A stretch of DNA of 29,625 nt from Halalkalibacterium halodurans (GCF_004376175.1 NZ_SNUY01000056.1:1-29625), one strand, 5' to 3'. Positions 8,158-18,392 are shown, counted from the stretch's first letter. A program made the numbers and translations. Notes: generated by a model not told the origin, from the sequence alone.

Positions 8158-8329
8158 CTACTCAATTACCAAACTATACCAGTTTGGACGTTAGGATGGA
8201 TTATCCCCTGTAAGAAATTTTAATTCGTTCTACTTCTATCCAGTAGTACTGGTGAGATTACTATTTGGTGTTAGTGAAATTTGGAGAATACATGAGTATT
8301 AGCGAGAAAATTAAACTTTATTGAGGGAG

Positions 8330-8881
8330 GTATTGGATCAAATCCCCTGCCTTCTTCCCCATGTGATCTTAATGGACATTCAAATGCCTATAATGAATGG
8401 GATTGAATGTTTAAAGGTAGTTAAGAGAATTTATCCCCACATTAACGTATTGATGTTAACAACGTTTGAAGATGATGATTACATTATTGAAAGTTTGGTC
8501 GGTGGAGCCAATGGTTTTTTGTTGAAAGATTTAAATTATGACCAACTGATCTATTCCATACGTCAATCGGTTGATGGACAGATGTTAATCCCTAACTCCA
8601 TTGCCGTTAAGCTAGCCAAACAGCTCTCTAAATATAATGAGCTGACTGAAGTGGATTTACAAATTGAAAAGTTAAAAAAAGAAGGGTTGCATTTTTCTGA
8701 ACGGGAACGACAAATTGCCTCCCTTTTAGCCCAAGGATTGACGAATAAAAAAATTGCCGAGAAACTTTATATTACGGAAGGTACTGTGAAAAATTACATA
8801 AGTGAAATTTATAGCAAGATCGGGATCCGTGATCGGATGCAAGCTTCCACCTATTTGCGAGATTTAGGAATCAATGACTAG
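8330..8881 (+). pseudogene. NarL/LuxR-family response regulator, C-terminal fragment
   Basis: Remainder of the receiver domain (PHVILMDIQMPIMNGIE..., LMLTTFEDDDYI) plus a LuxR-type HTH (ERERQIASLLAQGLTNKKIAEKLYITEGTVKNYISEIYSKIGIRDRMQA). Confidence 0.8.
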
Positions 8882-9291: not shown

Positions 9292-9307
9292 GTTCTTTAT
9301 AAAGAAA
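9292..9307. promoter_or_regulatory. SinR-type operator (palindrome, 1 mismatch)
   Basis: gttctttataaagaaa. The left half, GTTCTTT, matches the SinR consensus GTTCTYT. It lies just upstream of the -35 box at 9315. Confidence 0.55.
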
Positions 9308-9314
9308 TGAAAAG

Positions 9315-9343
9315 TTGATAAACCTTCTCGCTTCCTTTATAAT
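9315..9343 (+). promoter_or_regulatory. Sigma-A promoter of the PilZ-like gene
   Basis: TTGATA (9315-9320), 17-nt spacer, TATAAT (9338-9343). Confidence 0.65.
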
Positions 9344-9359
9344 GTTCTTTATAAAGAAC
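9344..9359. promoter_or_regulatory. SinR-type operator (perfect 16-bp palindrome)
   Basis: GTTCTTTATAAAGAAC abuts the -10 box and so covers the expected transcription start. Its centre is 52 bp from the centre of the 9292-9307 site. Confidence 0.6.
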
Positions 9360-9383
9360 AATTTCAGTAAGGAGAGGTTGACG

Positions 9384-9779
9384 TTGAGGTCCATCCCCTG
9401 TTTAACCGAACCATTTTATGCTAAGTTAAAAATTATACAGGTTCATAGGCGACAGATCTCCTCTAAGGATTCGCTTGTTCAAGTTATTGAATTAGATATG
9501 AGAAAGCTTCGGTTTCGATCCGATTTAAAATTTCCTGTCTCTTCTAATGTTGTTTATGCTTTGTATGCCGAATTACTCGACTGTGAGTTTGAATTTGTTG
9601 GAACGATCGTTAAATCGATTTTCTTACAAAAACGAGCGGGCTTTGAATATCAACTGAACTACCTTGAAGGCGTACGTACAAAAAAGCCTTCAGCCGGTGC
9701 ACTGCTTTCTGCCATCGCCTTTCTCGAAGCACTAGGTCATGAAGAAGGCCAACTAAACGCAAAAGCCAACAATCTCTAA
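9384..9779 (+). CDS. Hypothetical protein, PilZ-like beta-barrel with degenerate c-di-GMP motifs
   Basis: TTG 9384 lies 6 nt after RBS aaggagagg. The longer track ORF starts inside the -35 box and is rejected. The pattern VQVIELDMRKLRFRSDLKFPVSSNVVYALYAELLDCEFEFVGTIVK...FEYQLNY follows the PilZ strand layout. However RxxxR is not intact (HRRQISS) and DxSxxG is replaced by DMRKLR. The functional call is tentative. Confidence 0.5.
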   Translation: MRSIPCLTEPFYAKLKIIQVHRRQISSKDSLVQVIELDMRKLRFRSDLKFPVSSNVVYALYAELLDCEFEFVGTIVKSIFLQKRAGFEYQLNYLEGVRTKKPSAGALLSAIAFLEALGHEEGQLNAKANNL

Positions 9780-9799
9780 CGTTCTGATTGTTGGCTTTT
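9761..9799. terminator. Bidirectional terminator spanning the overlapping stop codons of the PilZ-like gene and sinR
   Basis: 13-bp perfect arms aaaagccaacaat (9761-9773) / attgttggctttt (9787-9799). Both stop codons (taa 9777-9779 on plus, tag 9776-9778 on minus) sit in the loop. Confidence 0.7.
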
Positions 9800-10111
9800 C
9801 CATTTTTGGAATTCAAGATATTCCTTAAATTGGTCTTTGCTTATCCCTGATTCCATTGCTTCCTTGACTAGTTTCTTCCAATCTTCATCAAGCTCTTCTC
9901 TGCTAGTAGTGTCTTGTGTTGATTGTAATAAAGATTCGACAGAAACGTCCAGCACTTGGGAAATTTTTTCTAAGAAGTGAATGGATGGATTGGTTTGAAT
10001 GTTCCGCTCAATTGAACTAAGATACGATTTGGCCACTCCTGCCCGCTCTGCTAACTCGGAAAGAGAAAGCTCTTTTTCCAATCGGTACTTCTTTACACGT
10101 TCTCCAATCAT
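9776..10111 (-). CDS. sinR: SinR, master repressor of biofilm matrix genes (Xre-type HTH plus SinI/SinR oligomerisation helix)
   Basis: MIGERVKKYRLEKELSLSELAERAGVAKSYLSSIERNIQTNPSIHFLEKISQVLDVSVESLL ... KDQFKEYLEFQKWK is nearly collinear with B. subtilis SinR. Start taken at ATG 10111 (MIG...), as in B. subtilis. Confidence 0.9.
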   Translation of the reverse strand: MIGERVKKYRLEKELSLSELAERAGVAKSYLSSIERNIQTNPSIHFLEKISQVLDVSVESLLQSTQDTTSREELDEDWKKLVKEAMESGISKDQFKEYLEFQKWKSQQSER

Positions 10112-10152
10112 CAAGACCGTTCCTCTCTTTGCTTACCGAATTCGTTGTCATC

Positions 10153-10191: not shown

Positions 10192-10323
10192 TTAGATGAT
10201 CTTGATTTTCTCTTTTTGTGAAACAGTTAAAAAGGAGCGGACTTCTTCAATAGTTAATCCTATTCTTTTTGCCTCCACGATTAATGCATACCATTCTTGA
10301 TCAAGAACTTTTTCTCCATTCAT
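10192..10323 (-). CDS. sinI: SinI, SinR antagonist
   Basis: 43-aa ORF absent from the supplied track: MNGEKVLDQEWYALIVEAKRIGLTIEEVRSFLTVSQKEKIKII, with RBS ggaggg 6 nt upstream. The core LDQEWxxLxVEAKxxxxxxEExRxxL matches B. subtilis SinI (LDQEWVELMVEAKEANISPEEIRKYL). It lies directly upstream of sinR. Confidence 0.8.
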   Translation of the reverse strand: MNGEKVLDQEWYALIVEAKRIGLTIEEVRSFLTVSQKEKIKII

Positions 10324-10513
10324 CCTTGTCCCTCCACAAAAGATTTGATCCAATTACACATAGCCGTTCCCATAACGTCTCAGAAATCTTTGTGACTACG
10401 AATCCCTTACCTATTTTAAATAACATTACGTCATAAGTTTAGTTACTTCGGTCATACTTCCAGTCATAATTTATTTGTGCTTTCTGAAAATTTTTGACTA
10501 ATTTGTCGGTTCA

Positions 10514-11098
10514 TTAGTATAGGGCCTCGGTCATCTCGGCTTGTACAATTAGGCGATGGGTCGGATCTTTCACAGGATCACACGTAATGAGCGTAAGTAC
10601 TGGAGCTGTTCCGTCATGTTGTAAAATGTCGATATTCGTAGGTTCAACAACTGTTATACTGTAAACCGTATATCGATACATGTGATTATTCGTTGTGACG
10701 GTAATGACATCCCCTACTTCGACTTCATCGAGCCGATTAAATTGCCTACCGTATGTTCGACTTCGGTGAGCGGCGATCGCTGCGTTCCCTTTTTCTCCGA
10801 TTGGTGATGACTCAATCATATGGCCGGCCCCAACTTTTAACGTCTCTTGATCAACACCTTGTAAGACTGGGAGCTTTAAAGAAATTTTCTCGATCTCTAA
10901 TACACCGATCGCATGTGGTTCTTCGCTAGAAAGGAGGTGTGGTTCTTCATTTGAAAAGGCTTCAAGCTCCCTATTTATTTTTTCATATGAATCAATCAAT
11001 CGGGTTTCGTAGAACGAATAATACTCGGTCTGTAATCTTGGAAAAAACATAAAAAGTAAGCCGAAACTAATGAACAAAACAGCTGTAATCGTTCTCAT
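10514..11098 (-). CDS. Sortase (membrane-anchored cysteine transpeptidase), probably dedicated to the adjacent LPQTG protein
   Basis: N-terminal TM segment. Catalytic His (NAAIAAHRS), TLITC cysteine motif and conserved Arg (THRLIVQAE). The start ATG overlaps the stop of the upstream gene (ATGA). Confidence 0.9.
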   Translation of the reverse strand: MRTITAVLFISFGLLFMFFPRLQTEYYSFYETRLIDSYEKINRELEAFSNEEPHLLSSEEPHAIGVLEIEKISLKLPVLQGVDQETLKVGAGHMIESSPIGEKGNAAIAAHRSRTYGRQFNRLDEVEVGDVITVTTNNHMYRYTVYSITVVEPTNIDILQHDGTAPVLTLITCDPVKDPTHRLIVQAEMTEALY

Positions 11099-11760
11099 GA
11101 TCCTCCTTCTAGCGACTCCTTACGATTTTTTCGGATGAGAAAGACGATACCGATTGAAAGAAGAAGAATCCCGATCAAATACATCCATGTCTGCACGGCT
11201 TCACCTGTTTGTGGTAATATCCCGCCCGGTCCACTCATCGAACCATCTGCTGGAAAATCAATTGGAGGCTGGAGCGTGCTTAACCGACCTTCCGAACGAA
11301 TCTGAAAGACAATGTCAGTCTGCAATCCTTGATATTCATTACCTGCCTCTTCTGGGAAAGTGACTGTAATAAATAACACATCGTCTTCACCTGAGGATAG
11401 AGCTCTTGAATCTAGCTTACGAAAATCTTTTAATTTTCCTGAGTGCAACGTCTGCCATTCATCTTTAATCGTTACATCCATGATGTTGTATAGCGCTTTC
11501 GAGCCTGAAACAAAAGAAGCTGACAAGACATAAGTACGATCATCCCCCTGGTTTACTATTATTAGTTCACGCGGAATCCAATCCCCTGGCTTTAAATGGT
11601 CCACGGAGAATAAAACATCTGCTGGGAACGTTTCAATATCGATCGTTGGCATCCGATCTGATGTAGCATATCCTGTCGTTGGAAATAAGAGCAACAAGAA
11701 GCTTATCATCAGTATCATTATCCTCAATATAATCACCACCCCACGAAAAAGAAAATCCAT
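11095..11760 (-). CDS. TasA/CalY-family (Peptidase_M73-like) protein with a C-terminal LPXTG cell-wall sorting signal
   Basis: It has the TasA-family hallmarks LKPGDWIPRELIIVNQGD and GNEYQGLQTDIVFQIRSE (compare LKPGD...NNG and NKYQG...F.F in TasA). The C-terminus is LPQTGEAVQTWMYLIGILLLSIGIVFLIRKNRKE, that is LPXTG plus a hydrophobic span plus a basic tail. The true start is probably internal (TTG 11727, ATG 11718 or ATG 11709), giving a signal peptide ending in TTGYA. Confidence 0.75.
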   Translation of the reverse strand: MDFLFRGVVIILRIMILMISFLLLLFPTTGYATSDRMPTIDIETFPADVLFSVDHLKPGDWIPRELIIVNQGDDRTYVLSASFVSGSKALYNIMDVTIKDEWQTLHSGKLKDFRKLDSRALSSGEDDVLFITVTFPEEAGNEYQGLQTDIVFQIRSEGRLSTLQPPIDFPADGSMSGPGGILPQTGEAVQTWMYLIGILLLSIGIVFLIRKNRKESLEGGS

Positions 11761-11861
11761 CCATTTTATGAGAGATTTCAGCGACTGTTGGTTTTAGCTT
11801 TACTTCTACTTACCTACCCTCAACGCGCTTCACTACTAAATTTTTGTATGAATCATCACGT

Positions 11862-11902
11862 TGAAGAAAAAGTCAAGGCAATGGACGTACATCACCTTGA
11901 CT
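11862..11902 (-). terminator. Probable partial terminator/attenuator after tasA
   Basis: On the minus strand, 8-bp stem agtcaagg / ccttgact (11902-11895 and 11878-11871) followed by ttttctt. Confidence 0.5.
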
Positions 11903-11923
11903 CCTATCGGGTTTTCGTTGTAT

Positions 11924-12556
11924 TTAACGCGCTTGACCTGGTTTTTGTGTTGCTTCAAGTTCATGAGTAACTTTAAGTGTCAAGCCTTGATATTTATTTT
12001 GAACGAATTCTCTTGAACCTTCTTTCCGTTCATCAGTCGGAACGAAAGTAATTTTCATTTTTAATCGATCGGTATGACCGACTGGTAAGTCTTTTTTACC
12101 TGATTCCCAGATTAGCCACCTGCGATAGTTATCCGCGATATTTCCAGATTGACTTTCGAGTTCAGCTAATGTTTTTCCAGAGATTTCTGGAATAATTTTT
12201 CCTTCATTGCTTAGGAAATCGACTCTTAATTGGGTAGCAAAGTCAGCTCCCTCATCAGAGGATTTTAATTTCTTACCATTTTTATACACTTCTGTTTGTG
12301 TGAACATAAGTACTTCATGAATATCAAGTGTTCCATTATTTGTAATTGTAAACTTGCGCGTCATGTGGTCTCCGGGCTTCAAATTATTTACATCAAAGAC
12401 GATTGTTGGATCAACACCTAGATCGATTGTACCGGCAGCAAAGGAACTCTCAATCGTTTCCACATCGTTAAACCACGCATACGTTCCTCCACCTAAAAGT
12501 GAAACCCCTACCGCTGCGGTAATAACCGCCATCCCTACTTTTCTTTTAATTGTCAT
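11924..12556 (-). CDS. tasA: TasA/CalY-family biofilm matrix fibre protein
   Basis: SipW-type signal and mature N-terminus VSLLGGGTYAWFNDVETIESSFAAGTIDL, then NLKPGDHMTRKFTITNNGTLDI and VQNKYQGLTLKVTHELEATQ. Collinear with B. subtilis TasA. RBS aaggagga. Confidence 0.9.
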   Translation of the reverse strand: MTIKRKVGMAVITAAVGVSLLGGGTYAWFNDVETIESSFAAGTIDLGVDPTIVFDVNNLKPGDHMTRKFTITNNGTLDIHEVLMFTQTEVYKNGKKLKSSDEGADFATQLRVDFLSNEGKIIPEISGKTLAELESQSGNIADNYRRWLIWESGKKDLPVGHTDRLKMKITFVPTDERKEGSREFVQNKYQGLTLKVTHELEATQKPGQAR

Positions 12557-12637
12557 AAAGAGTCCTCCTTAAATATTCCCCCAAATGTTAGGTTGAAGGG
12601 GTTTTTTATCTATGAAAACCGCCAAATGCGGATTTCA

Positions 12638-13207
12638 TCATGAGGTTTGATCCACTTGCTTTTGCTCCTGACGTTTTTCAAGCGTCCCAATCGCTCGCCA
12701 AAGCGTAATGATGGAATACAAGATAAGTAAAACCCCAGGAACAATCATTAAGAGTGCCGTTCCTTCTTTCGTCGTTGCAAATGTGAGAATGTATCCTAGG
12801 TACGGGACAGTAAATCCTGTGTATTCACCAACGACATTGGCTGCCAGTACAGGCTCAAGATCAGCCGCGTCATTGTTATCCCCTTTTGTTACATATTGAA
12901 CATGGTCTCCGTTTTGCAGCACCTCTACAATTCGGTGCGTGACAAGTGTATTGTCTTCTTTTAAAAAGGTAATGACATCTCCGGCCTGAAAACCAGTTCC
13001 ATTGCCTTCTACTTGTTTCACAGCTATAATCGAGCCTGTATGGAATGCAGGCTCCATTGAGCCGGAGAGAACCACATTTAATTGATGACCAAACACGGTT
13101 GGTTTTCCGCCAGAGGCATGAGAAATAATCGAGAGCATCGCGACGGAGATCATTAATAGAAAAAGAAGAAACGTCATTGATTTACTAATGATTTTCAGTA
13201 TCTTCAT
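12638..13207 (-). CDS. sipW: Signal peptidase I, SipW (ER/archaeal) type
   Basis: SGSMEP catalytic box, HRIV and GDNN motifs, plus a C-terminal TM segment. Start set at ATG 13207; GTG 13213 and TTG 13234 are alternatives. It overlaps the 3' end of the TapA-like gene by at least 23 nt. Confidence 0.88.
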   Translation of the reverse strand: MKILKIISKSMTFLLFLLMISVAMLSIISHASGGKPTVFGHQLNVVLSGSMEPAFHTGSIIAVKQVEGNGTGFQAGDVITFLKEDNTLVTHRIVEVLQNGDHVQYVTKGDNNDAADLEPVLAANVVGEYTGFTVPYLGYILTFATTKEGTALLMIVPGVLLILYSIITLWRAIGTLEKRQEQKQVDQTS

Positions 13208-13958
13208 CGGCACCTTGCTCCCCTCCAGTTTCAAGATGGTTCTGTTTCGTGCGGCCTTCTTGCTCCTCTATGTCAGAATGCTCCTTTTCTTCGTTTTTCG
13301 GCGAAGGAAAATCGCTAGACTCGTCTTCTTCCAGGGTTGTGTCTTCCTCAAATGTCTCTTTATCTTCCTCCATTGAGCTTCTTTCTGCTTCGTCTATCTT
13401 TTCTTCAGGCTGTTTACAATCTTTCAAAACAAATGCATCCCCATCTTGCCAAACTTCGCCTTCTTCAGGGTGCCCCTCTTCTTGATAGACTTTAAACTTA
13501 TAGCGACCTGGTTCTGTTGGTTCGTATGTCAATTCCAATGTTTCTCCTGCTTTGAGAGGATCAATGGTACCTTCATAAAGGATTGTTTCATCCGTAAACG
13601 TTGGCTTGCCTTTCAAGTTTGGATCAAAGTACACAACATATGTAATGCTTTTTTTCATGTCACCGTCGCCAGCATTTTTAATCGTTACTGATAGTTCTTC
13701 ACAAGAACCTTTTTGCTCCCCTTGTAGGAACGTGAGAGAACTACCCCTCCATTCTTCTTTTACGTCATCTTTTCCATCGTCCCACTCACCTGCGTTCGTC
13801 GAATGTTCAATGGTGACAACTGCATTGAAGGAAGCAGTCGTAGGCTGTGTGATGGAAGCGAGCGAAAAACATAACAAATAGATAAGAATAAATGTTTTTA
13901 CAAAAATAGAGAAAGCTACTTTCTTTTTTTGTCGAGCAGTTAAGCGATCTTTGCGCAA
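13185..13958 (-). CDS. TapA-like secreted protein (TasA-type signal, CARDB-like beta-sandwich, acidic tail)
   Basis: Start proposed at TTG 13958, with RBS gggggtga 7 nt upstream, giving MRKDRLTARQKKKVAFSIFVKTFILIYLLCFSLASITQPTTASFNAVVTIE. This resembles the TapA/TasA signal and the T.A.F.D.E junction. The middle part (IKNAGDGDM ... PLKAGETLELTY ... GRYKF) resembles a CARDB-type Ig-like domain. The C-terminal ~70 aa are very rich in D and E. The position, first in the sipW-tasA operon, matches tapA. Confidence 0.55.
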   Translation of the reverse strand: MRKDRLTARQKKKVAFSIFVKTFILIYLLCFSLASITQPTTASFNAVVTIEHSTNAGEWDDGKDDVKEEWRGSSLTFLQGEQKGSCEELSVTIKNAGDGDMKKSITYVVYFDPNLKGKPTFTDETILYEGTIDPLKAGETLELTYEPTEPGRYKFKVYQEEGHPEEGEVWQDGDAFVLKDCKQPEEKIDEAERSSMEEDKETFEEDTTLEEDESSDFPSPKNEEKEHSDIEEQEGRTKQNHLETGGEQGADEDTENH

Positions 13959-13987: not shown

Positions 13988-14003
13988 GTTCTTTATAAAG
14001 AAC
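13988..14003. promoter_or_regulatory. SinR-type operator (perfect 16-bp palindrome)
   Basis: GTTCTTTATAAAGAAC, 30 nt upstream of the proposed TapA-like start codon. Confidence 0.6.
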
Positions 14004-14048
14004 TAACACTGTCAGTATAGATCTATACATTAAGAAAAGAAACCTCTG

Positions 14049-14077
14049 TAAAGAACGATAAGGACGATATAACGAAC
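14049..14077. promoter_or_regulatory. Two additional SinR-type half-sites
   Basis: taaagaac (14049-14056, the reverse complement of GTTCTTTA) and aacgaac (14071-14077, the reverse complement of GTTCGTT). Confidence 0.35.
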
Positions 14078-14124
14078 ATTTTTCACACATTCTCTTTGAA
14101 TAACTCATGATTTCTCACGTTTTT

Positions 14125-14140
14125 GTTTTTTATAAAGAAC
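14125..14140. promoter_or_regulatory. SinR-type operator (palindrome, 1 mismatch)
   Basis: gttttttataaagaac has one mismatch to GTTCTTTATAAAGAAC. Its centre is 137 bp from the centre of the 13988-14003 site. Confidence 0.5.
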
Positions 14141-14749: not shown

Positions 14750-16936
14750 TTACACGAGTTCTTTTGCGATTTTTTGTTTAAACTCTAGGCGCCGACGATG
14801 CAAGATCGGTTCTGTATAACCACTCGGCTGTTCTGTCCCTTTTAACACGAGCTCTAATGCTGCTTGGAAGGCGACAGACTGCTCAAGATTATCAGCCATT
14901 GGACGGTAAGCGGGATCCCCGGCATTTTGTTCATCCACTACTTTTGCCATGCGTTCCATCGTTCGAATCACTTGCTCCTTACTTACGATGCCGTGACGAA
15001 GCCAATTGGCCATATGTTGACTCGAAATGCGCAAAGTGGCGCGATCTTCCATTAATGCTGTGTTATGAATATCAGGCACCTTAGAGCAGCCGATCCCTTG
15101 TTCCACCCAACGCACGACATAACCGAGAATCCCTTGGGCATTATTATCAAGCTCTGCTTGAATGTCCTCATTCGTCCAGTCGGTAGAGCCAGCTAGAGGG
15201 ATTTCAAGAATCTCCTTGCGATAGCACGTTTGATCATCTGCAAGTGTCTTTTGAATGGCAGGTACATGGTGGCGATGATAATGAATGGCGTGAAGCGTCG
15301 CTGCTGTTGGCGATGGCACCCATGCTGTATTTGCTCCAGCTTCAAGTTGACTTCCTTTCTGTTCCATCATCTCGTTCATATGATCCGGCATTGCCCACAT
15401 TCCTTTTCCGATTTGAGCTCGGCCTCGGAAACCACAAGTTAGGCCCGTGGCTACATTGGATCGCTCATAGGCTGAGAGCCAGCTAGACGACTTCATATCC
15501 CCTTTGCGAATCATCGGGCCCGCTTCCATCGATGTATGAATCTCATCCCCAGTTCGATCCAAAAATCCCGTATTGATAAAGACGACCCGTTCCTTTACTT
15601 TCTCAATGCATGCTTTTAAATTTAGGGACGTGCGCCGCTCTTCATCCATGACGCCGATTTTCAACGTATGACGTTCCAAACCGAGAATGTCTTCAATTCG
15701 ATTAAACAATCGATTGGCAAAAGCCACTTCCTCCGAACCATGCATTTTTGGCTTTACGATGTAAACCGATCCTTTTTTTGAGTTTCGGAATGTGCCATTT
15801 TGCAACAAATCATGCTTAGCAATTAGGCTCGTAACGATTCCATCTAGAATGCCTTCTGGCACTTCCTCGCCTGATTGCGTTCGAATAACAGGCGTGGTCA
15901 TTAAGTGTCCAACATTCCGGATAAACATGAGCGAACGCCCTGGTAGCGAGAACGTTTCTCCATTTGGTGCCGTGTAGCTTCGATCCTCGTTTAACTTTCG
16001 CTTTTTTGTTTTTCCTTCTTTCGTAAACGTTGCTTCAAGTGTTCCTTTCATAAGACCAAGCCAGTTTTGATAGACAGCTACTTTGTCTTCAGCATCAACA
16101 GCTGCGACGGAATCTTCACAATCCATAATTGTGGTTAGCGCGGACTCAAGGACAATGTCCTTCACCTTTGCCCGATCACTTTTTCCAATTGGGTGTCTTG
16201 CATCGATTTGAATTTCTACGTGAAGTCCATGATGAAGAAGAAGAATGACAGATGGGTCTCCTTGTGAACCTTGGTAACCGACAAACTGTGTCTCGTCCTT
16301 TAATCGTGTCATCTTTCCAGATTCAAGTGTAACGACTAGTTGCTTATCCATGATGGCATAGTTGATAGCCTCATGATGAGAGCCGCTTGTAAGCGGGAAC
16401 GTATGATCTAAGAAGTCTTTGGCAAACTGAATAACTTTGGCTCCTCGTTTCGGGTTGTATGTCCCCGTTTTTTCGCATCCGTCCTCTTCTGAAATGACAT
16501 TCGATCCGTAAAGGGCATCATACAAACTTCCCCAGCGAGCATTCGCTGCATTAATCGCATATCGTGCATTGTTGACTGGAACCACTAGCTGTGGTCCTGC
16601 TTGCGCCGCGATTTCATCATCCACATTTTCCGTTGTAATGGTTACATGTTCAGGGATTGGCTCTAAATAGCCGATTTCTTCTAAAAACGAGTGATATGCT
16701 GAAAAATCAATGGGTCCTTTGTTTTTTTGATGCCACGCATCGATCGTTGCTTGAATTTCTTCACGTTTAGCGAGAAGCATCTTGTTTTCTGGCATCAATT
16801 CAGTGATGATTTGCTGGACACCAGACCAAAAATCGTCCTTCTTAATCCCCGTTCCAGGAAGAGCCCTCTGCTCAATAAATGTTATTAGTTTGGTCGCCAC
16901 CTGCAAATTTCCCACATGTTCGTATGTTTCCATCAT
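14750..16936 (-). CDS. glcB: Malate synthase G
   Basis: 728 aa, the length expected for malate synthase G and collinear with it by eye over the whole ORF. RBS aaaggaggag; the second ATG (16933) is the better-spaced start. Confidence 0.93.
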
Positions 16937-16946
16937 AACTCCTCCT

Positions 16947-18392
16947 TTATTTATTTAATGATTGTTTGATCTCAACACAACGGCTAGGGGAAGGGAAAAG
17001 CTTCCCGCCGTTTAGGAGATTGCGCGGATTAAACACTTGGCGTATTTCGAGTTGGGCATTGATTTCCTCTTCTGTAAAGACGAAGCGCATCTCTTCTTTC
17101 TTTTCAATTCCGATCCCATGCTCACCTGTGATGGTTCCACCAACGGCTGCACACGCCCGGAGACATTCACTCCCTGCTTGTAGCGCTCGTTCGGTCTCTC
17201 CTTCTACCGTCGCATCAAACAGAACAAGGGGGTGAAGGTTACCATCACCGGCGTGAAAAATATTTGCGATTCGTAGCCCGTATGTTTCGCTGATTTTTTG
17301 AATCGTTGAAAGCACGACCGGAAGCTTTGTCCGCGGGATCACTCCATCTTGTACGAGGTAATCAGGTGAGATGGCACCCATGGCACCAAAGCCTGTTTTT
17401 CGGTTCGCCCACCATTTCATCCGTTCTTCTTCAGATGTAGCTACTTTCACCTCGCGAACATGATGCTTTCGGCAAACGGTTAAAATACGTTCAATTTGTT
17501 GATCCATTCCGGCAGAAATGCCGTCCACTTCGATTAGCAAAACCGCTTCCGCATCAAGTAGGTGCCCGATAGGGAAAGCGGCGGCCTCCACGCCTTCCAT
17601 CGCTATGCGATCCATCATTTCAAGCGCTGCTGGGACAATCCCTTCTGAAATGATGTCAGACACCGTGTGACTTGCATCGCTCACTTTGTCAAAGTAAGCT
17701 AAAACCGTCTGTTTCGCCTCTGGATGTTTCAAAATGCGAACGGTAATTTTTGTAACAATTCCAAGTGTTCCTTCTGATCCCGTCATCAGTCCAAGCAAAT
17801 CATACCCAGGTTCATCCAATATTCCAGCTTTTCCGATTTCCACAATGTCCCCATTCGGGAGTACCACTTCCATTCCTAAGATATGGTTCGTGGTAACTCC
17901 GTATTTAAGACAGTGGGCGCCGCCAGCATTTTCTGCCACATTACCACCGATCGTGCAGCAATATTGGCTGGATGGATCTGGCGCATAGTAATACCCTTTG
18001 TCCTCAATGAATTGAGTAAGCTTTATATTGACATAACCAGGTTCAACGATCGCGCGGCGGTTTTTCAGATCGACTTCAAGTAAGCGCTTCATCCGTACGA
18101 GGCTAATAATGACCTCCCCATTGATCGGGATCGCCCCACCACTTAGTCCTGTTCCGGCTCCTCTGGCGAGAAAGGGAAGGTTATGATCGTGACAGTAACG
18201 GACAATGCTTGCCACTTCCTTTGTATTTTCCGGAAACACAACCGCCTTTGGCAAATGTTTATGAATCGTAAACCCATCGCAATCATAGGCTAGCAAATCT
18301 TCTTTCTTATATAGAACCGGATTGTGTCCGCTTAACAGCTCGTGAAAAGATCGGATGTGAGGATCTTCATGCTCGCGCTTCCTTCCAATCAT
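16947..18392 (-). CDS. glcD: Glycolate oxidase subunit GlcD (FAD-linked oxidase)
   Basis: FAD-binding PCMH domain ([14 protein letters not shown]) plus an FAD-oxidase C-terminal domain. ATGA overlap with the upstream glcF. Confidence 0.9.

Follow-up and report, generated by a model that had tools for sequence, protein, structure and literature searches.

A TasA homologue with a sorting signal and without a donor strand: a candidate terminal subunit and wall anchor of TasA fibres in Halalkalibacterium halodurans and its relatives

A minus-strand biofilm locus of seven genes, in the order tapA, sipW, tasA, X, sortase, sinI and sinR, lies in a 29,625-nt stretch of Halalkalibacterium halodurans DNA (the window; all positions are counted from its first letter, Table 1). 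X is our name for the fourth gene and its product, a TasA-like protein that ends in an LPQTG sorting signal. A reading of the sequence alone had proposed that this protein could be a wall-linked acceptor that caps or anchors the TasA fibre. Sequence and predicted structure, as far as they reach, support that interpretation and, on balance, we think that X is a wall-linked terminal subunit that can only accept a donor strand, and that it thereby caps and anchors the fibre.

Residues lost and kept at the fibre interface

In published models of the Bacillus subtilis TasA fibre, each subunit n lends its N-terminal strand to complete subunit n+1. Residues F29 of subunit n, Q232 of subunit n+1 and F200 of subunit n+2 box in P62 of subunit n+2, and no residues are better conserved in the family (PMC9674648, PMC10151520). 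For a subunit at the very end that only accepts, P62, F200 and the groove suffice; a strand of its own and Q232 are dispensable. We scored the donor strand and the glutamine in 72 X proteins and in 66 TasAs of the same loci. The donor motif was scored as [AGSTV]x[FYW][NSTDK]D after GGGTxA. The glutamine was scored 13 residues past the glycine of YQG, a position that aligns with B. subtilis Q232.

The donor-strand motif is present in 65 of the 66 TasAs and in none of the 72 X proteins. The glutamine gives the same counts (65/66 against 0/72); its place in X is taken by Gly in 40 proteins, including that of the window, by Ala in 13, Glu in 10 and Asp in 6. The sequence-only reading was thus right that X lacks the AWFND.E-type mature N-terminus: the window's TasA reads GGGTYA followed by WFNDVETIESS, and X has no such segment. 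In a second sample of 162 proteins from a representative library of metagenomes and genomes, seeded partly with the same proteins as the first, the donor motif was again absent (0/162), while 155 of the 162 carried sorting signals.

What X retains is equally uniform. Within KPGD and N-x-[YF]-Q-G, the P, G, N and Q are invariant over 61 and over 112 aligned X members. At the position equivalent to F200, 49 of 71 X proteins have Phe and 15 more have V, M, I or L. This residue-level pattern strengthens the idea of an acceptor: the beta0 strand with F29 is lost together with Q232, and P62 (in KPGD), the F200 equivalent and NEYQG are kept. As far as can be read from sequence, X keeps and loses exactly what a subunit that is always last would need and not need. 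Because X has no N-terminal donor strand, it should be unable to extend a fibre; because the core of TasA is retained, along with the KPGD proline and the NEYQG strand that lie at the fibre interface, it could accept the strand of the last TasA.

TapA presents the opposite case. Its signal peptide is of the SipW type, and the N-terminus of the mature protein, ASFNAVVTIEHS, is similar to the donor strand of TasA (SFNAVVTIEHS against WFNDVETIESS in the window), which fits its published role as initiator (PMC9674648, PMC10151520). With this mimicry, the locus would encode a donor-only, a donor-and-acceptor and an acceptor-only protein.

X as a TasA homologue and probable sortase substrate

By itself, X scores 21.5-21.8 bits on PF12389, just under the gathering score of 22.5. 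BLASTP aligned only 34 of its residues with the window's TasA and produced no alignment with the window's TapA. Since X alone is borderline and pairwise BLASTP too weak, we show the homology at the level of the family and its profiles. PF12389 is matched by 45 of 61 X relatives at E<=1e-3, the best at 4.6e-11. A profile of the X family, run against all Protein Data Bank (PDB) sequences, has the TasA fibre chain 8AUR_A as its best match. When the X family was compared by hhalign with 31 TasAs of the same loci, the probability was 98.7% (E 2e-16, 127 columns), and the alignment begins directly after the TasA donor strand. The earlier placement of X in the TasA family therefore stands for the family, whereas the single protein falls just short of the PF12389 cut-off.

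Structure prediction for X alone also gives the TasA fold. AlphaFold2 models have core pLDDT values of about 90-98, and of 94-98 when X is modelled with 112 homologues. In Foldseek, the top match of the 112-homologue model is the TasA fibre protomer 8AUR_A. The next matches are FimA and PapA (of type 1 and P pili), Pyrodictium cannulae, Pyrobaculum bundling pili and the Sulfolobus 0406 thread; all of those listed after 8AUR_A are donor-strand-exchanged fibres. The self-complemented, monomeric form of TasA, 5OF2, is the top PDB match of one model and stands only at rank 33 for the 112-homologue model. Judged by profiles and predicted fold, X is a TasA homologue, and solidly so at the family level.

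At its C-terminus, X has the canonical sorting signal that had been recognized from sequence, with LPQTG, a hydrophobic span and RKNRK. The signal exceeds the cut-offs of PF00746 (25 bits vs 20) and TIGR01167 (35 bits vs 15.9). A match to the EF0750/EF2685 family was rejected as it is confined to this signal. LKPGD...NQGD and NEYQG likewise lie where that reading implied, in a core of about 125 residues. The probable start is M15 of the open reading frame (ORF), at position 11718, as in the NCBI annotation. X is 100% identical to a database protein assigned to H. halodurans. The stop codon overlaps the start of the sortase gene (ATGA, 11095-11098), also as first described. From these features, X appears to be a sortase-type LPXTG cell-wall protein that would be linked to the wall.

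The neighbouring enzyme is a sortase by its PF04203 domain and its His, Cys and Arg motifs, but the reading of it as a sortase gains no subclass: the window's protein lies below every NCBIfam class cut-off. Its best partial class match is the class C model NF033745, at 121 bits vs 160 (orthologues in related loci reach 124-135). The class D models NF058671/NF033746 give 88 bits vs 140 and 77 bits vs 165, and sequence matches in the PDB are scattered over classes A, C, D and E.

Sorting signals in the X family vary together with the sortases beside them. The NCBIfam model of the LPxTATN sorting signal is matched by 37 of 61 X members, and the sortases that adjoin members with LPxTA(T/N) are class D, LPxTATN-specific enzymes (162-242 bits vs 140). 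Where LPQTG or LPITG is followed by Glu, the downstream sortase is of the window's type in 12 of 12 cases; in 9 of them, the two genes overlap or lie no more than 7 nt apart. These LPQTGE loci come from Pseudalkalibacillus, Thalassobacillus, Fictibacillus, Rossellomorea, Piscibacillus, Halalkalibacillus and Pontibacillus. In the B. cereus group, the signal of X is LPRTG or LPHTG, and the locus has no sortase. That two lineages of sortase follow the type of signal within a single substrate family speaks for genuine pairs of enzyme and substrate, and it singles out an unclassified sortase lineage that is paired with LPQTGE signals.

X might instead be a pilin that its sortase polymerizes into a covalent pilus, and the best partial class match of the sortase, at 121 bits, is indeed the class C model. 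We nevertheless rejected this reading, which we find hardly credible, as the class C cut-off of 160 bits is missed, X has no YPK pilin motif and the cluster holds a single LPXTG gene.

The class D partners raise another alternative. In Bacillus, this sortase class has a link with sporulation, and the first description of TasA was as a protein associated with spores. X might then be a sporulation- or envelope-associated substrate, sorted to forespore or mother-cell peptidoglycan as are BasH and BasI of B. anthracis, with no part in biofilm fibres. Most X members do bear LPxTATN and stand beside class D sortases. Yet the window's own sortase is not class D (88 bits vs 140), sinI and sinR flank the locus, SinR-box-like motifs lie upstream of tapA, and a sporulation role leaves the selective loss of the donor strand unexplained. 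We regard it as very improbable.

TapA-like proteins may be sorted as well. In Rossellomorea aquimaris (L005, 671-3668, minus strand), a TapA-like protein of 765 aa ends in LPKTS and adjoins a second sortase gene. It is the sole such case among 37 TapA matches, and it suggests that TapA-like proteins, too, are possible sortase substrates.

Gene order, transcription and neighbouring genes

To delimit the family, we scanned one genome per species with a degenerate pattern. X relatives occur in at least 104 species genomes, from which 80 loci were kept; 79 were probed with the window's proteins for a sipW at most 4 kb and a tasA at most 5 kb away from X. In a wider search, an X profile was run against 1.84 billion representative proteins from metagenomes and genomes, which yielded 227 clusters at E<=1e-30 and 881 at E<=1e-10.

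Both sipW and tasA were found in 63 of the 79 loci, so that an LPXTG paralogue of TasA is a regular part of sipW-tasA loci in Bacillaceae. Two gene orders recur. In 23 loci, the order is that of the window, (tapA)-sipW-tasA-hairpin-X. In 24, it is tasA-tapA-sipW-X with X close behind sipW; the gap there is estimated at less than 60 nt in 15 and is somewhat larger in 9.

Variants of the locus were also seen. One B. cereus-group locus (L020, 7010-7768) reads sipW-tasA-capP-like-X(LPRTG)-calY and so holds a capP-like gene and X together. Seven others of that group (L023, L024, L030, L034 and L038-L040) have the same spacing, with about 1 kb between tasA and X; among these eight loci, the capP-like ORF was read in L020 only. 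In Brevibacillus and Aneurinibacillus (L057, 7902-8693; L065, 2832-3698), X-like proteins follow sipW-tasA and have neither donor strand nor sorting signal. They carry an extra C-terminal domain (...YKAEFSGSYPAGEYAAVIYDGDRVLGKKTFRV) and may be acceptor-only subunits with another anchor, or adhesin modules. A record titled Bacillus subtilis strain DE0224 (L051) has tapA-sipW-tasA-X, with a TasA of 196 aa and an X with LPNTA; a TasA this short, together with an X gene, suggests that the genome is not B. subtilis sensu stricto. In Cytobacillus firmus DS1 (L069, 7962-8820), X is broken into ORFs of 70 and 209 aa, probably by a frameshift or as a pseudogene.

In the window, a hairpin separates tasA from X. 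The hairpin is followed by UUUUUCUU, and it is probably a terminator or an attenuator. A simple terminator scan missed it, its stem and loop lying beyond the limits of the scan. Most of the 23 loci with X close behind tasA have GC-rich hairpins of <=-10 kcal/mol with a U-rich tail after tasA. The hairpin makes the word operon, which had been applied to the five genes, uncertain. That TapA-like, sipW, tasA, TasA-family and sortase genes are co-directional is borne out, as all five lie on the minus strand and were identified by profile searches, but the hairpin parts tasA from X and its sortase.

Upstream of tapA, whose start is a TTG at 13958 preceded by a good ribosome-binding site (GGGGGTGATGGAG; the ORF as listed reaches 14108), a cluster of GTTCTTT heptamers is likely to mark a SinR-controlled promoter region. 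GTTCTTT-type matches in the window number 18 vs 12 expected, so that the clustering alone is suggestive. A SinR-regulated promoter for X was considered and rejected: a pattern search of 11761-11923 upstream of X found no GTTCTYT SinR-like box, and a simple sigma-70 scan was at chance level.

Several observations weigh against X as the end of a TasA fibre. Paenibacillus has 16 loci in which X is paired with a class D sortase as a two-gene module surrounded by unrelated genes; no sipW or tasA lies within 8 kb, and the neighbours differ between species. The Paenibacillus X proteins have a long Pro-rich stalk and still keep KPGD and NEYQG, so these motifs may serve folding rather than the interface with TasA, unless TasA is encoded elsewhere. 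Either the partner is indeed encoded elsewhere in those genomes, or X is able to act alone. In the window's X, a stalk of no more than about 22 residues joins the core to LPQTG, and the domain may thus be buried in the wall. The hairpin could place X and the sortase in a transcription unit of their own, and no SinR-like box stands upstream of X. The sortase itself falls into no curated class. Finally, the Foldseek scores of X are modest (E ~5e-5, TM 0.41-0.52), the TM-scores being low because X is a trimmed core without the insertions of TasA.

Some of these points would be expected if X were an autonomous wall-anchored surface protein with a TasA fold, an adhesin or matrix-binding protein that sits beside sipW and tasA for biofilm co-regulation only and is not in fibres. 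The Paenibacillus modules and the hairpin fit such a protein, as does the SipW-type signal-peptide model TIGR04088, which matched none of 61 X members. On this account, however, it would be surprising that X stands beside sipW/tasA in 63 of 79 loci, close behind sipW in 24, and that its best structural matches are donor-strand-exchanged fibre subunits. The published interface motifs are kept, and only the donor strand and Q232 are uniformly lost (PMC10151520). We therefore consider an autonomous protein unlikely. The proposed tie to sipW/tasA holds for X in those 63 loci, whereas in Paenibacillus the X-sortase pair occurs without it, a finding that the sequence-only reading had named in advance as counting against its proposal.

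Beyond sinR, three more GTTCTTT heptamers (9292-9359, with an inverted pair at 9344-9350/9353-9359) lie just downstream of that gene and at the start of a 154-aa ORF (9315-9779, plus strand) with no Pfam match. A further promoter under SinR control may lie there. The genes for malate synthase G (14750-16936) and for an FAD-linked oxidase (16947-18392), both on the minus strand and upstream of the biofilm locus, probably form a glycolate-utilization cluster and have no bearing on X. Elsewhere in the window, a LuxR-type response-regulator gene (6197-8881, plus strand) is interrupted by an IS110-family element with its transposase gene at 6472-7812. The N-terminal receiver part ends near 6433; the remainder, with in-frame stops upstream, resumes at 8321-8881 and covers receiver profile positions 33-110 and a GerE domain. 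A second IS110 transposase gene lies at 23-1306.

Table 1. Features of the biofilm locus in the window
Feature	Position	Strand	Evidence or remark
tapA	13185-13958	-	TIGR04087 3e-60, 203 bits vs cut-off 80; also TIGR04088
GTTCTTT SinR-box-like heptamers (four)	13988-14140	-	pattern search; inverted pair 13988-13994/13997-14003
sipW, dedicated signal peptidase	12638-13234	-	NF046067 2.4e-76, 255.5 bits vs cut-off 190
tasA, major fibre subunit	11924-12556	-	PF12389 1.8e-78, 263 bits
tasA donor strand, WFNDVETIESSFAAG	12431-12475	-	sequence; protein reads GGGTYA then WFNDVETIESS
tasA LKPGD	12368-12382	-	
tasA NKYQG	11984-11998	-	
tasA EATQ	11945-11956	-	Q232 equivalent
Terminator-like hairpin between tasA and X	11863-11904	-	13-bp stem, U-tract, -18.4 kcal/mol
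X, TasA-like LPXTG protein	11095-11760	-	221-aa ORF; 207 aa from M15
X signal peptide end, GYA	11665-11673	-	ordinary type
X LKPGD	11581-11595	-	
X NQGD	11542-11553	-	
X TFPEE	11347-11361	-	
X NEYQG	11326-11340	-	
X LPQTG	11203-11217	-	
X membrane span	11134-11199	-	22 residues, hydrophobic
X RKNRK	11119-11133	-	
Sortase	10514-11098	-	PF04203 7e-35, 119.9 bits vs 26.6; TIGR01076 100 bits vs 39
Sortase N-terminal membrane anchor	11042-11083	-	
Sortase His motif, AAHRS	10760-10774	-	
Sortase Cys motif, TLITC	10580-10594	-	
Sortase Arg motif, THRLIV	10544-10561	-	
sinI, anti-repressor	10192-10353	-	PF08671 6e-14
sinR, biofilm master repressor	9776-10114	-	PF01381 2e-16 (HTH, helix-turn-helix); PF08671 9e-14 (SinI-type dimerisation helix)

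A proposed end for the TasA fibre

We propose that X would be exported by its ordinary signal peptide, and that the sortase translationally coupled to it would cleave X at LPQTG and link it covalently to peptidoglycan. TapA, as a donor only, would start the fibre and come to lie at its distal end. TasA, both donor and acceptor, would form the shaft, which would grow by addition of subunits at its membrane-proximal strand end. X, whether linked to the wall beforehand or afterwards, would then accept the free N-terminal strand of the last TasA, at which point growth would end and the fibre would be fixed. The hairpin after tasA may keep X sub-stoichiometric relative to TasA.

The same parts can be arranged in reverse, with X as a wall-fixed nucleator that takes the first TasA strand, the fibre growing outward into the exposed groove and TapA acting as a chaperone or distal cap. 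The acceptor-only signature would be the same as for a terminator, and both arrangements would put X at the donor end of the fibre. Against a nucleator, TasA cannot release its strand before its groove has been complemented, and it is TapA that gives the first strand (PMC9674648, PMC10151520). This groove-first rule, together with a first strand from TapA, favours growth at the strand end and makes X the last partner. A hairpin that lowers the expression of X would also suit a terminator better. We think a nucleator quite improbable and retain X as the terminal subunit.

Terminal subunits of this kind have counterparts in other fibres. FimH and PapG of chaperone-usher pili are acceptor-only adhesins without a donor strand, and the basal pilins of sortase pili are joined to the wall by sortase. 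Like FimH and PapG, X has no donor strand and would be a minor subunit at one end of a polar fibre; in those pili, however, it is the distal tip that lacks a strand, whereas X would form the base, at the proximal end. With basal pilins, X would share the joining to the wall by sortase, but it has no homology to the sortase pilins.

In B. subtilis, anchoring of the fibre is attributed to the non-covalent protein TapA. Although TapA has been called an anchor, the part of it that is required is the N-terminal strand alone, and its persistence in the fibre is questioned by structural work. To our knowledge, B. subtilis has neither X nor a sortase linked to the locus. The window's TapA, SipW and TasA are true orthologues of the B. 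subtilis proteins, with the donor-strand motif and the interface residues of TasA conserved, and sinI and sinR are adjacent as a further likeness. To this set, the window adds a putative acceptor-only subunit with a sorting signal and a sortase gene. B. cereus has a further arrangement, CapP (BC1280)-TasA-CalY, described explicitly as sortase-independent (PMC13082335). There, a wall-associated accessory protein within the sipW-tasA locus controls fibre assembly, but CapP is not TasA-like and is anchored through a disordered C-domain.

We found no literature report of LPXTG-TasA paralogues in Bacillaceae, nor one that links TasA, sortase and halodurans. The original remark that no characterized module of this kind was known thus holds for Bacillaceae, but speculative or predicted precedents exist in Clostridium. 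Most C. perfringens strains have, in the bsa operon, sipW-bsaA and a bsaB-like LPXTG gene, with srtB adjacent (PMC11580942, PMC7395162). A preprint on this species notes that relatives of BsaA/TasA often stand beside LPxTG proteins and sortases, and it speculates that a BsaB homologue with LPXTG, together with SrtB, anchors BsaA oligomers to peptidoglycan (PMC11580942). The likeness lies in an LPXTG paralogue of the TasA superfamily beside a sortase and SipW. The bsa proteins belong to another subfamily, however, in which BsaA/BsaB have isopeptide cross-links, and the sortase gene is divergently oriented. In strain 13, the LPXTG motif is lost and deletion of srtB had no phenotype. An analysis of donor-strand loss is not reported there.

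A second preprint (2026) presents AlphaFold3 donor-strand complexes of an AbpX fibril with an LPXTG anchor in Clostridium, and it describes canonical Bacillus TasA loci with SipW and TapA only (bioRxiv 10.64898/2026.01.04.697558). AbpX loci, whose anchors are of LPXTG or SLH type, resemble the window in that the gene for a donor-strand fibril of the TasA superfamily stands beside an LPXTG anchor and sortases. They differ in belonging to the AbpX clade, in being calcium-dependent, in having a ten-span signal peptidase and in their clostridial hosts. The anchoring idea itself is therefore not unprecedented; what the present work adds is the family-wide signature at residue level and the unclassified sortase lineage of the LPQTGE loci.

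Our wider proposal is more tentative, and we rate it as possible but somewhat short of probable. X would be the covalent wall anchor of TasA fibres and would set their length, as the base of a tip-shaft-base machine of TapA, TasA and X that works by donor-strand exchange and is completed by a sortase; this machine would be ancestral and widespread in Bacillaceae and would have been lost in B. subtilis and B. cereus sensu stricto. Its loss in both model clades, if true, would account for the machine never having been seen and for anchoring there looking non-covalent or 'sortase-independent'. For most other Bacillaceae, X would give a concrete and testable answer to how TasA fibres stay on the cell and what stops their growth. 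The family defined here comprises at least 227 sequence clusters that have so far been annotated only as 'LPXTG cell wall anchor domain-containing protein'. If the proposal is true, these proteins would link donor-strand exchange with sortase anchoring, two principles of fibre building that have so far been separate in Gram-positives.

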